Source: a virus (Duplodnaviria; Heunggongvirae; Uroviricota; Caudoviricetes). From it: a stretch of DNA of 40,875 bases. The position numbers were made by a program, and so were the translations under genes. Numbering within the stretch: the first letter of the stretch is position 1; the number at the start of each line of letters is the position of its first letter. The notes beneath the pieces are model-generated. The model was not told the DNA's origin, did not search any database, and saw nothing but the letters and a program-made list of their open reading frames with translations. Positions 16,219 through 17,904 of the stretch are shown here, piece after piece. The stretch is taken from IMG/VR virus record IMGVR_UViG_2563366845_000003, positions 1-40,875 of that record; one strand, 5' to 3'.

Positions 16219-16403
16219 ACGCCACAATTCAAACGATACCAGAGCTTCTTATCCAGACACGAGGCAATCAGACCGAAGTGGCAAGGATGCTTTCCTGCGC
16301 AAGAGGAACAGTGCTCAAGTACAACCGAGACAGCAAAGGCGAGCGTCATGTAATAGTTAACGGCGTCCTGATGGTCAAACAGGGAAAGAGGGGAAGACGA
16401 TGA
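16215..16403 (+). CDS. Small hypothetical protein (62 aa), possibly DNA-binding
   Basis: ATG overlaps the rusA stop; basic C-terminus; HTH-like segment TEVARMLSCARGTVLKY. Confidence 0.5.
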   Translation: MNATIQTIPELLIQTRGNQTEVARMLSCARGTVLKYNRDSKGERHVIVNGVLMVKQGKRGRR

Positions 16404-17023
16404 GACTCGAAAGCGTAGCTAAATTTCATTCGCCAAAAAGCCCGATGATGAGCGACTCACCACGGGCTACGGCTTCTGACTCTCTTTCCGGTACTGATGT
16501 GATGGCTGCTATGGGGATGGCGCAATCACAAGCCGGATTCGGAATGGCTGCATTCTGCGGTAAGCATGAACTCAGCCAGAACGACAAACAAAAGGCTATC
16601 AACTATCTGATGCAATTTGCACACAAGGTATCGGGGAAATACCGTGGCGTTGCAAAGCTTGAAGGAAATACTAAGGCAAAGGTACTGCAAGTGCTCGCAA
16701 CATTCGCTTATGCGGATTATTGCCGTAGTGCCGCGACGCCGGGTGCAAGATGCAGAGATTGCCACGGTACAGGTCGTGCGGTTGATATAGCAAAAACAGA
16801 GCAGTGGGGGAGAGTTGTTGAGAAAGAGTGCGGAAGATGCAAAGGCGTTGGCTATTCAAGGATGCCAGCAAGCGCAGCATATCGCGCTGTGACGATGCTA
16901 ATCCCAAACCTTACCCAACCCACCTGGTCACGCACTGTTAAGCCGCTGTATGACGCTCTGGTGGTGCAATGCCACAAAGAAGAGTCAATCGCAGACAGCA
17001 TTTTGAATGCGGTCACACGTTAG
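16400..17023 (+). CDS. Q: Late antiterminator Q (lambda type)
   Basis: 207 aa MRLESVAKFHSPKSPMMSDSPRATASDSLSGTDVMAAMGMAQSQAGFGMAAFCGKHELSQNDKQKAINYLMQF ... essentially identical to lambda Q. Confidence 0.97.
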   Translation: MRLESVAKFHSPKSPMMSDSPRATASDSLSGTDVMAAMGMAQSQAGFGMAAFCGKHELSQNDKQKAINYLMQFAHKVSGKYRGVAKLEGNTKAKVLQVLATFAYADYCRSAATPGARCRDCHGTGRAVDIAKTEQWGRVVEKECGRCKGVGYSRMPASAAYRAVTMLIPNLTQPTWSRTVKPLYDALVVQCHKEESIADSILNAVTR

Positions 17024-17065
17024 CGGCATGATTGCCACGGATGGCAACATCTTTACGGCATGATA

Positions 17066-17094
17066 TTGACTTTTTGAATAAAGTTGGGTAAATT
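17066..17094 (+). promoter_or_regulatory. Late promoter pR' with overlapping qut site (-35 TTGACT, 17 bp spacer, -10 TAAATT)
   Basis: Hexamers at 17066..17071 and 17089..17094; sequence through the early transcribed region matches lambda pR'/qut, including the pause-inducing region. Confidence 0.8.
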
Positions 17095-17130
17095 TGACAT
17101 CAACGATGGATAAATGCACTCGTTAAGTAA

Positions 17131-17160
17131 AGCCCTGAGTTAATAGCTCGGGGCTTTTTG
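17131..17160 (+). terminator. Intrinsic terminator about 55 nt downstream of pR' (tR'-like, terminating a short 6S-like RNA)
   Basis: AGCCCTGAG-ttaatag-CTCGGGGCT followed by TTTTT; 9 bp stem with one G-U pair. Confidence 0.75.
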
Positions 17161-17176
17161 CGTTACAATCACAAAG

Positions 17177-17250
17177 GGAAGAGCGTTAGGTGAATCGGCG
17201 ATACTGCCCCACAAGCCCGTTAATCGATAGAGGTAGACTAGCGCTCTTCC
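17177..17250. repeat. Long-range 9 bp inverted repeat (GGAAGAGCG ... CGCTCTTCC) enclosing 56 nt
   Basis: Read directly; this block is the part of the pR'-to-S leader that differs from the lambda sequence as I recall it, while flanks match lambda. Confidence 0.5.
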
Positions 17251-17580
17251 TTTTGTGCTGAATTAAGCGAATGCCGGAAGCAGAACCGGATCACCAAATG
17301 CGTACAGGCGTCATCGCCGCCCAGCAAAAGCACAACCCAAACTGAGCCGTAGCCACTGGCTATCCTGAATTCATCAGTGATAGTTATGCTGCGGCCTTCT
17401 GCACATGACCTTCGTGAAAGCGGGTGGCATGAGGTTGCTCTAACAACCTCCTGCCGTTTTGCCCGTGCATATCGGTCACGAACAAATCTGATTACTAAAC
17501 ACAGTAGCCTGGATTTGTTCTATCAGTAATCGACCTTATTCCTAATTAAATAGAGCAAATCCCCTTATTGGGGGTAAGAC

Positions 17581-17904
17581 ATGAAGATGCCAGAAAAACA
17601 TGACCTGTTAGCCGCCATTCTCGCGGCAAAGGAACAAGGCATCGGGGCAATCCTTGCGTTTGCAATGGCGTACCTTCGCGGCAGATATAATGGCGGTGCG
17701 TTTACAAAAACAGTAATCGACGCAACGATGTGCGCCATTATCGCCTGGTTCATTCGTGACCTTCTCGACTTCGCCGGACTAAGTAGCAATCTCGCTTATA
17801 TAACGAGCGTGTTCATCGGCTACATCGGTACTGACTCGATTGGTTCGCTTATCAAACGCTTCGCTGCTAAAAAAGCCGGAGTAGAAGATGGTGGAAATCA
17901 ATAA
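17581..17904 (+). CDS. S: Holin S (lambda S107/S105 dual-start)
   Basis: [39 protein letters not shown] ... identical in character to lambda S, with the Met1-Lys-Met3 dual-start motif. Confidence 0.97.

Follow-up and report, generated by a model that had tools for sequence, protein, structure and literature searches.

What occupies the interval between the late antiterminator gene and the first lysis gene of a lambdoid prophage, and does it act on late-gene readthrough or as something else? The question is raised by a 557-nucleotide (nt) non-coding stretch, running from the Q gene to the S gene, in a lambdoid prophage (Duplodnaviria; Heunggongvirae; Uroviricota; Caudoviricetes) taken from IMG/VR record IMGVR_UViG_2563366845_000003, of which positions 1 to 40,875, all 40,875 nt on one strand, were analysed and are called the window below. 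The initial annotation had read positions 17024-17250 as a replaced 6S RNA and tR' segment, with a shortened 6S-like transcript followed by a 9-base-pair (bp) inverted repeat that might form a structured RNA and affect readthrough. The promoter, qut site and terminator prove to be already known, and the repeat belongs to a hairpin that is a variant of a feature lambda itself has. At the tip of this hairpin lies a 48-nt motif that appears to be a conserved structured RNA, undescribed as far as Rfam, the record annotations searched and a full-text sequence search show.

The 9-bp repeat, GGAAGAGCG at 17177-17185 and CGCTCTTCC at 17242-17250, is exact, as had been reported, but it is merely the core of a longer one. 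The full inverted repeat has 20-nt arms, 90% complementary to each other, at 17170-17189 (CACAAAGGGAAGAGCGTTAG) and 17238-17257 (CTAGCGCTCTTCCTTTTGTG) on the plus strand. As RNA, these arms (CACAAAGGGAAGAGCGUUAG and CUAGCGCUCUUCCUUUUGUG) pair into an outer stem, designated P1, that closes a hairpin of 88 nt, 17170-17257, beginning ten bases past the terminator described below. A 98-nt stretch folds at -38.4 kcal/mol, against -22.9 +/- 3.5 kcal/mol for shuffled sequences (z = -4.4), and none of 200 shuffles did as well. The suggestion that the repeat-bounded segment is a structured RNA is borne out by this fold and by the covariation that follows.

Both arms align to a hairpin of the lambda late leader, J02459 44787-44862, which sits directly after tR' and before the leader that the two genomes share (the alignment to lambda covered J02459 44400-45300). 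The 5' arm is homologous to lambda's CACAACAGGTAAGAGCATTG and the 3' arm to lambda's CAGTGCTCTTTCCGTTGTG, and the two arms covary: relative to lambda, two pairs of the window's stem are changed on both sides, G-C to A-U in one and A-U to G-C in the other, and a U.G pair is kept. The apical core of the lambda hairpin, 37 nt long, is unrelated to the 48 nt found in the window, and a covariance model of the 48-nt motif gives no match in lambda at an expectation value (E) of 10 or less, so that a diverged copy in the lambda core was rejected. The lambda-like leader had been said to resume after the repeat; homology does resume there, and it already includes both hairpin arms. As an observation on the 3' arm, a boxA-like core, CGCTCTT, is found at 17242-17248, with TGCTCTTT in lambda (44844-44851) and GCTCTTAC in phage-plasmids.

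Escherichia coli CFSAN004176 carries an HK97-type short terminator, then lambda's hairpin at the same position, then the same downstream leader, an arrangement indicating that the hairpin is a discrete module, exchanged whole at a fixed position. The repeat segment is not, then, part of a replaced 6S/tR' region, as had been proposed, but a separate swappable module of which lambda has one with other apical content. HK97, read directly, has about 110 nt after its terminator and no hairpin. In phage Kapi1 (L071 560-760), tRNA-Asn and tRNA-Thr come immediately after a lambda-type 6S/tR' and stand where the hairpin and the leading ~90 nt of the lambda leader would otherwise be, pointing to free remodelling of the site after tR'. 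The window's exact arrangement is absent from the phage collection, where every record falls short of 80% coverage for a 237-base query, and the most that any covers of a 701-base query is 84%; it occurs in a number of IMG/VR and metagenome contigs.

The 48-nt motif, 17190-17237, is built from a strand of 14 nt and a loop of 19 nt, both conserved, and a 7-bp helix that covaries. The single strand, designated J1/2 (GUGAAUCGGCGAUA, 17190-17203), contains a CGGCG that is invariant in all five of the sequence classes described below. The inner hairpin P2 (17204-17236) pairs CUGCCCC at 17204-17210 with GAGGUAG at 17230-17236, with a conserved C.A mismatch and with compensatory variants in other copies. 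Its loop (ACAAGCCCGUUAAUCGAUA, 17211-17229) includes the block CCGU-N-AAUCGA, invariant except at N, and a linking base A (17237) leads back to P1. Pair combinations seen in P2 are CUGCC/GGUAG, CAGCC/GGCUG, CUGAC/GUCAG, AUGAC/GUCAU and GCGAC/GUCGC, plus wobble variants, so that P2 shows five combinations, and P1 four unrelated sequences, in compensatory base-pair changes that span contexts but come from few independent lineages. In a model-based alignment of 23 distinct copies, which leans towards the modelled structure, pairing holds in 92.7% of cells; shuffling, a control that overstates significance for related sequences, leaves 69.6%, and sliding the partners 28-40%; double-sided changes occur at 9 of the 14 pairs. 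A plain MAFFT alignment gives 82.7% paired against 62.8% shuffled, and RNAalifold independently recovers both P1 and P2. The 33 unpaired nucleotides of strand and loop are almost invariant across classes. We hold with high confidence, as regards anatomy and homology, that the motif is a conserved RNA structure, and its pattern of substitution points to purifying selection acting on it as RNA. A small open reading frame was considered and rejected: a GTG-initiated frame of 23 codons crosses the motif, a stop shortens it to 10 codons in the Klebsiella copies, and the substitutions fit pairing rather than coding.

The first sign of the motif elsewhere was a 45-nt match to Klebsiella phage pJN2-26, located 18 nt upstream of a tRNA-Asn and closed by an unrelated 7-bp stem, GACACCG/CGGTGTC. 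Pattern scans found five sequence classes, A to E. Class A comprises lambdoid late leaders, with the window's stem or one of three lambda-like stem variants. Class B, with the 7-bp closing stem, lies upstream of tRNA-Asn in Klebsiella-type phage-plasmids (293 plasmids, 291 of them from Klebsiella), and class C, on a lambda-type stem starting 2 nt after tRNA-Thr, is found in E. coli phage-plasmids (84 plasmids, 83 from E. coli and one from Shigella). Class D is a myovirus-like contig (L053 2460-3100, minus strand), in which the motif sits at the tip of an unrelated 21-bp stem directly after a terminator; class E is an Acinetobacter prophage from a metagenome-assembled genome (L081 2840-3045), with the motif between terS and terL. 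The motif is oriented like the neighbouring tRNA, late or terL genes where such genes flank it, and the class D copy forms an antisense non-coding unit of its own. A scan of genome-representative contigs returned 40 matches, a single real one among 39 chance 20-mers, and a metagenome scan returned the same classes plus chance matches in coding regions. Since these two scans added just classes D and E beyond the enterobacterial phages, the distribution is narrow.

Two of these loci merit description. The class D locus is about 750 nt of non-coding sequence antisense to baseplate genes, with a promoter-like site, TTGACA/GATACT, and two tandem hairpins of ~21 bp that share an outer stem, GAATGTAACGG/ACCGATACATT, and differ in cargo; the second bears the motif. 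This locus is the same constant-stem, variable-cargo design in unrelated sequence. At the class E locus, 45 nt separate the motif from terL, which follows it; before it come terS, a terminator-like hairpin and a 20-nt inverted repeat, and P1 is set apart from the conserved strand by an additional hairpin. That strand reads GGCGGUAGCG, which resembles an ops element (JUMPstart match at E = 8.3, probably chance).

Lambda-type arms separated by 30-60 nt, the pattern used to define the stem family, match in more than 120 viral contigs, a lower bound, and 30 distinct sequences among the loci listed put at least ten unrelated cores inside nearly the same 20-bp stem. Judged by its arms, the lambda late-leader hairpin is a member of a widespread, unannotated stem family with an exchangeable apical part. 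The commonest class of the family, carried unannotated by 341 of 5426 complete E. coli genomes, lies behind another late promoter-terminator pair and has no tRNA close by. In the tRNA arrays of ~100-kb phage-plasmids the stem begins 2 nt past the CCA end of tRNA-Thr (31 of 35 copies in one class, 15 of 16 in the motif-bearing class), and two hairpins can succeed each other in tandem. Two types of cargo, found in the phage-plasmid tRNA arrays L189, L186 and L177, contain hairpins resembling a tRNA T arm (AGGGTTCGAATCCCT and GTAGAGTTCGACTCTCTAC); in these arrays the hairpins are spaced by a conserved ~130-nt linker bearing its own hairpin, GCGCAGGCTGATGCGC. The loci sampled place the hairpins after late terminators or in tRNA arrays, oriented as the neighbouring tRNA and late genes wherever genes flank them. 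All 32 distinct hairpins, the window's and lambda's included, are more stable as plus-strand RNA than as the complement, with a mean difference of -6.2 kcal/mol; this bias fits G.U pairs in a transcript and argues against a purely DNA-level repeat.

Could either stem or motif be a known element under another name? Searches of Rfam with the window copy, at E <= 1 and again at E <= 10, and with the Acinetobacter copy at E <= 10, gave no relevant family for the motif, and the check that had been suggested for the repeat-bounded segment found no family matching it. What these scans returned was tRNAs, microRNA-precursor noise from the long stem, a weak isrJ match on the pR' leader, and JUMPstart/ops at E = 8.3, which overlaps the covarying P2 arm and was taken as chance. 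At gathering score, seven related loci yielded tRNAs only and no family for the hairpins of the stem family. A full-text literature search gave nothing relevant for the motif and stem sequences, and the motif is unannotated in the records searched. A tRNA or tRNA remnant was rejected, ARAGORN finding none in the window and the flanks of the anticodon-like block discussed below being unable to form an anticodon stem. Likenesses to twister, pistol, HDV-like, fluoride and preQ1 elements were also set aside, their topologies not fitting and their models being unmatched.

How might such a hairpin work? The reading we prefer, which in our judgment has about as much chance of being right as of being wrong, is that the late transcript carries an RNase III-type processing hairpin, from which a structured small RNA is presented or set free. 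RNase III needs about two helical turns (~20 bp) of double-stranded RNA, and P1, 20 bp mostly Watson-Crick with two G.U pairs, has that length. Processing is favoured by the stem length, by sites that lie beside stable-RNA genes or at the head of the late operon, by the RNA strand bias, and by a 1988 report by Daniels et al. (cited in PMC7547250) that, going by its title, describes RNase III processing sites in Q-dependent lambda late RNA, for which the lambda late-leader hairpin is a candidate location. The late-control leader would then be a mosaic of three modules: a Q/pR'/qut cassette, the 88-nt hairpin, and the 48-nt RNA domain at its tip. In the first, by homology to the lambda-type mechanism, the constitutive transcript would stop at the terminator after ~57 nt unless Q has modified RNA polymerase. 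In the second, the 20-bp stem would be an RNase III-type site at which the read-through late transcript is cut. In the third, processing would release or present the 48-nt domain as a small stable RNA, which may bind a protein or a second RNA by way of the conserved nucleotides that it leaves unpaired. For the processing and small-RNA steps, drawn from features of the sequence, our confidence is modest. The RNase III stems of rRNA operons and of T7 early RNA are likewise of ~20 bp with wobbles or a bulge, in long untranslated or polycistronic transcripts near stable RNA genes; the window differs in that its apex holds conserved cargo rather than mature rRNA or a simple loop, and in that cleavage here is predicted.

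We do not think that the motif is a control of tR' readthrough. The effect on late-gene readthrough that had been envisaged finds no link in these data: the hairpin lies downstream of the terminator, and the motif also occurs in tRNA arrays and other non-coding phage transcripts.

Several points weigh against the processing hairpin. That HK97 does without it means that the hairpin is dispensable for lambdoid late expression, and the window's exact arrangement is rare in E. coli, occurring in 16 of 5426 complete genomes. The 7-bp closing stem of class B is too short for RNase III, so that RNase III processing is not essential to the motif. No partner, target or ligand was identified for it, and its covariation comes mostly from about five sequence classes and represents few independent events. 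The RNase III sites that Daniels et al. reported for lambda may lie outside 44787-44862.

The alternative that survives best, although we judge it unlikely, is that hairpin and cargo are debris of a mobile tRNA cassette (tRNA-Asn/tRNA-Thr/hairpin) that recombined into the moron site after pR' and is functionless here, the stems serving mainly as homology patches for module exchange. The tR'-S interval is known as a hot spot for insertions (PMC4104026), and in Kapi1 it is tRNA-Asn and tRNA-Thr that occupy the site. Stems of the same type follow tRNA-Thr by 2 nt in most tRNA-array copies, two cargo types contain T-arm-like hairpins, HK97 dispenses with the hairpin altogether, and cores are swapped at a fixed position. 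The difficulty is that the 33 unpaired nucleotides stay nearly invariant while both helices change in compensatory fashion, across unrelated stems and hosts; debris would not keep its pairing, nor does this explanation sit well with an RNA-type strand bias in every hairpin.

Near-invariance of the unpaired blocks brings up a second alternative, that the 48-nt core acts by catalysis or by binding a ligand, either as a new self-cleaving small ribozyme for late and tRNA transcripts or as an aptamer. Its size, its free closing helix, its single covarying inner helix and its long invariant unpaired blocks are typical of small ribozymes and aptamers, and its sites, tRNA arrays and operon leaders, are ones that call for processing. 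By inspection, the invariant CGG of the 5' strand could pair with the invariant CCG of the loop as a pseudoknot. This candidate, like that of AUCG with CGAU, has partners that never vary or that are broken in divergent copies, and the pseudoknot is therefore without covariation support. With two divergent copies showing no match to any Rfam ribozyme or riboswitch at E <= 10, no expression platform (the S start is 330 nt distant), and the narrow distribution seen in the genome and metagenome scans, we regard a ribozyme or aptamer as improbable.

The same loop allows a more specific proposal, which we consider quite improbable: that the block C-C-G-U-N-A-A-U-C mimics, except at position 33, the anticodon loop of tRNAs with a G-U-N anticodon (Asn, CUGUUAAUC; Tyr, CUGUAAAUC) together with the first bases of its stem, and as decoy or competitor draws off an enzyme recognizing Y-G-U-N, for instance an anticodon nuclease like colicin E5, complementing the phage tRNAs found alongside it. 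The one freely variable base in the 11-nt invariant block, which may be U, G or A, is the equivalent of anticodon position 36, and the tRNA-Asn beside the Klebsiella copy reads CTGTTAATC where the window reads CCGTTAATC. Colicin E5 requires just YGUN in the loop and accepts C at Y (PMC1635277), and phage tRNAs have been proposed as a counter to anticodon nucleases (PMC10264068). Set against this, the likeness was seen post hoc, and a match of 7 to 8 bases has by rough estimate a probability of ~0.03 by chance when ~40 anticodon loops are allowed; the block lies in a 19-nt loop instead of a 7-nt loop on a 5-bp stem, and no tRNA model matches it. We know of no anticodon nuclease tied to the phages that carry the motif.

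A DNA-level or Nus-factor element, whether a recombination or transposition site with terminal inverted repeats or an attC-like form, or a boxA in which the CGCUCUU of the 3' arm loads NusB/NusE, is very improbable: constant arms around variable cargo do resemble cassette boundaries, and the arms begin CACAAC and end GTTGTG with a YGCTCTT boxA core in the 3' arm, but the strand bias and the orientation with flanking tRNA and late genes speak for RNA, the motif also rides on unrelated stems, the sampled hairpins lie after late terminators or in tRNA arrays (target-site duplications not having been looked for, here or for the miniature inverted-repeat transposable element rejected on the same evidence), and the window has 21 YGCTCTT sites where 13.6 are expected, the site in question (17242-17248) being base-paired inside the stem.

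Upstream of the hairpin the locus is conventional. The intrinsic terminator tR' (17131-17159, plus strand) has a 9-bp G+C-rich stem, AGCCCUGAG at 17131-17139 and CUCGGGGCU at 17147-17155, a 7-nt loop and a U5 tract (17155-17159), with a hairpin energy of -16.8 to -19.1 kcal/mol. It is of the HK97/HK022/P22 type by its folds and its homology to phage records. A simple terminator scan did not list it on the plus strand, and the call is backed by the fold and by the annotation "terminator" in the homologous record of Salmonella phage Emek. The predicted pR' RNA runs from ~17102 to ~17158, about 57 nt, and the strong terminator that had been noticed shortly after the predicted start is confirmed. 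The 65-nt leader fold has z = -3.7, so that on folding, as had been suggested, leader and hairpin are both structured.

Positions 17026-17172 match 125 phage records at 80-99% identity, 118 of them at 90% or more and over 100 at 93-99%, including HK97, HK022, the HK and mEp series, N7, ECP1 and many P22-like Salmonella phages; several of these are annotated "promoter", "Qut site" and "terminator". The predicted short terminated pR' transcript and its terminator are the standard HK97/HK022/P22-type module, already known. HK97 shares the Q protein (99% identical), the promoter, the Q-binding element, the pause, a 1-base spacing difference from lambda and, in the sequence read directly, the same extra base and the same terminator, and it differs only after the terminator. 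The phrase "shortened 6S" was apt in that ~137 nt of the 194-nt lambda 6S body (PMC7547250) is absent and a short terminated leader stands in its place; as a novelty it does not hold, the arrangement being that of known lambdoid phages (HK97, HK022, mEp/HK and P22-like). Lambda and the window share promoter, qut logic and Q family, and in both the RNA is the constitutive terminated pR' product, but the window leader is shorter and non-homologous, with a terminator hairpin of different sequence; a lambda 6S homologue was rejected in the alignment on the missing ~194-nt body and the different terminator.

Short terminated pR' transcripts have been described for lambda, 21, phi80, 82 and P22 (PMC7547250). 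The window leader shares origin and architecture (5' hairpin, terminator, U tail) with StxS, IsrK and other short terminated pR' regulatory RNAs (PMC7547250; PMC4825925), and no sequence homology to them is shown except that 17087-17157, from the pR' -10 through the terminator, gives a sub-threshold Rfam match to the Salmonella small RNA isrJ (25.9 bits against a gathering score of 37, E = 0.055). IsrJ lies in Gifsy-1 downstream of antQ-isrK-anrP (PMC4825925), a location that makes it, too, a possible remnant of a late promoter-terminator module. AgvB and AsxR, anti-small RNAs encoded in the same insertion-tolerant region after pR' (Tree et al. 2014, PMC4104026), are non-coding RNAs of 51-60 nt with their own promoters and Rho-independent terminators. 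An RNA of this type was rejected for the window, where the scan found no terminator after the hairpin, the arm CACAAAG is base-paired and the Rfam AgvB and AsxR models are unmatched. Separately, lambda-type stems in L017, L054, L181 and others have a 5' arm starting CACAACA and a 3' arm ending CGUUGUG, GcvB-like; the window's arm reads CACAAAG where those begin CACAACA. CACAACA is the consensus target of the GcvB R1 seed used by the prophage anti-small RNA AgvB (PMC4104026).

The remaining features of the interval, all on the plus strand, are those expected of the module. The late antiterminator gene Q (16400-17023, 207 amino acids; Pfam PF03589 Antiterm, E = 1.3e-57) is a member of the lambda Q family by that domain and by identity to HK97 gp69 at 204 of 207 residues. 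The late promoter pR' (17066-17094), found by promoter scan and by alignment to lambda, has a -35 hexamer TTGACT (17066-17071) and a -10 hexamer TAAATT (17089-17094), in the scan as TTGACT-17-TAAATT. Between the hexamers lies the Q-binding or qut 21-mer TTTTGAATAAAGTTGGGTAAA (17072-17092), with 19 of 21 matches and 2 mismatches to lambda; its boundaries are those that phage annotators use for the qut site, and the homologous stretch is labelled as promoter or as "Qut site with 2 bp mismatch" in HK542, HK544, mEp235 and mEp234. At the transcript start is a -10-like pause-inducing element, AACGAT (17102-17107), identical to lambda in the alignment and one base further from the -10 than in lambda, with the same extra base in HK97. 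The predicted +1, placed by analogy with the lambda start, is ~17101-17102. This is a sigma-70 promoter with a Q-binding element between its hexamers and a start-proximal pause element, and the lambda-type identity assigned to promoter, qut and pause region is upheld by near identity in the alignment and by the Q family.

Downstream of the hairpin, an untranslated leader to the lysis genes (17258-17580) is of lambda type, with ~95% identity to lambda 44863-45185, and the first late gene, the S holin (17581-17904, start at 17581), is identified by Pfam PF05106 (E = 2.4e-30). The promoter scan also listed a promoter-like site, TTAATA-18-TACAAT (17140-17169), that overlaps the terminator loop and whose start would fall inside the 5' arm of the hairpin. 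Its TACAAT is part of the hairpin module: every class A copy has it, and HK97 and CFSAN004176 lack it. The site is probably non-functional, because it would drive S constitutively.

Few stretches of DNA have been studied as closely as the lambda late leader, and still the hairpin after its tR' belongs to an unannotated family. Rfam has no entry for the motif carried in the window, which some 380 clinical phage-plasmids of Klebsiella and E. coli have in their tRNA arrays. A broader conjecture, which we put forward as distinctly unlikely, is that enterobacterial temperate phages and phage-plasmids carry RNase III-type hairpin cassettes in late leaders and tRNA arrays, each delivering a different small functional RNA, and that the window's cargo is a new functional RNA class, for example a G-U-N anticodon-loop mimic that would blunt nucleases directed at tRNAs, or a small ribozyme or aptamer. 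Should the hairpins not be processing sites, the first reading of this locus would still stand corrected, its shortened 6S being ordinary and its repeat having no evident role in readthrough. If the hairpins do liberate small RNAs, they would represent an overlooked layer of phage non-coding RNA.

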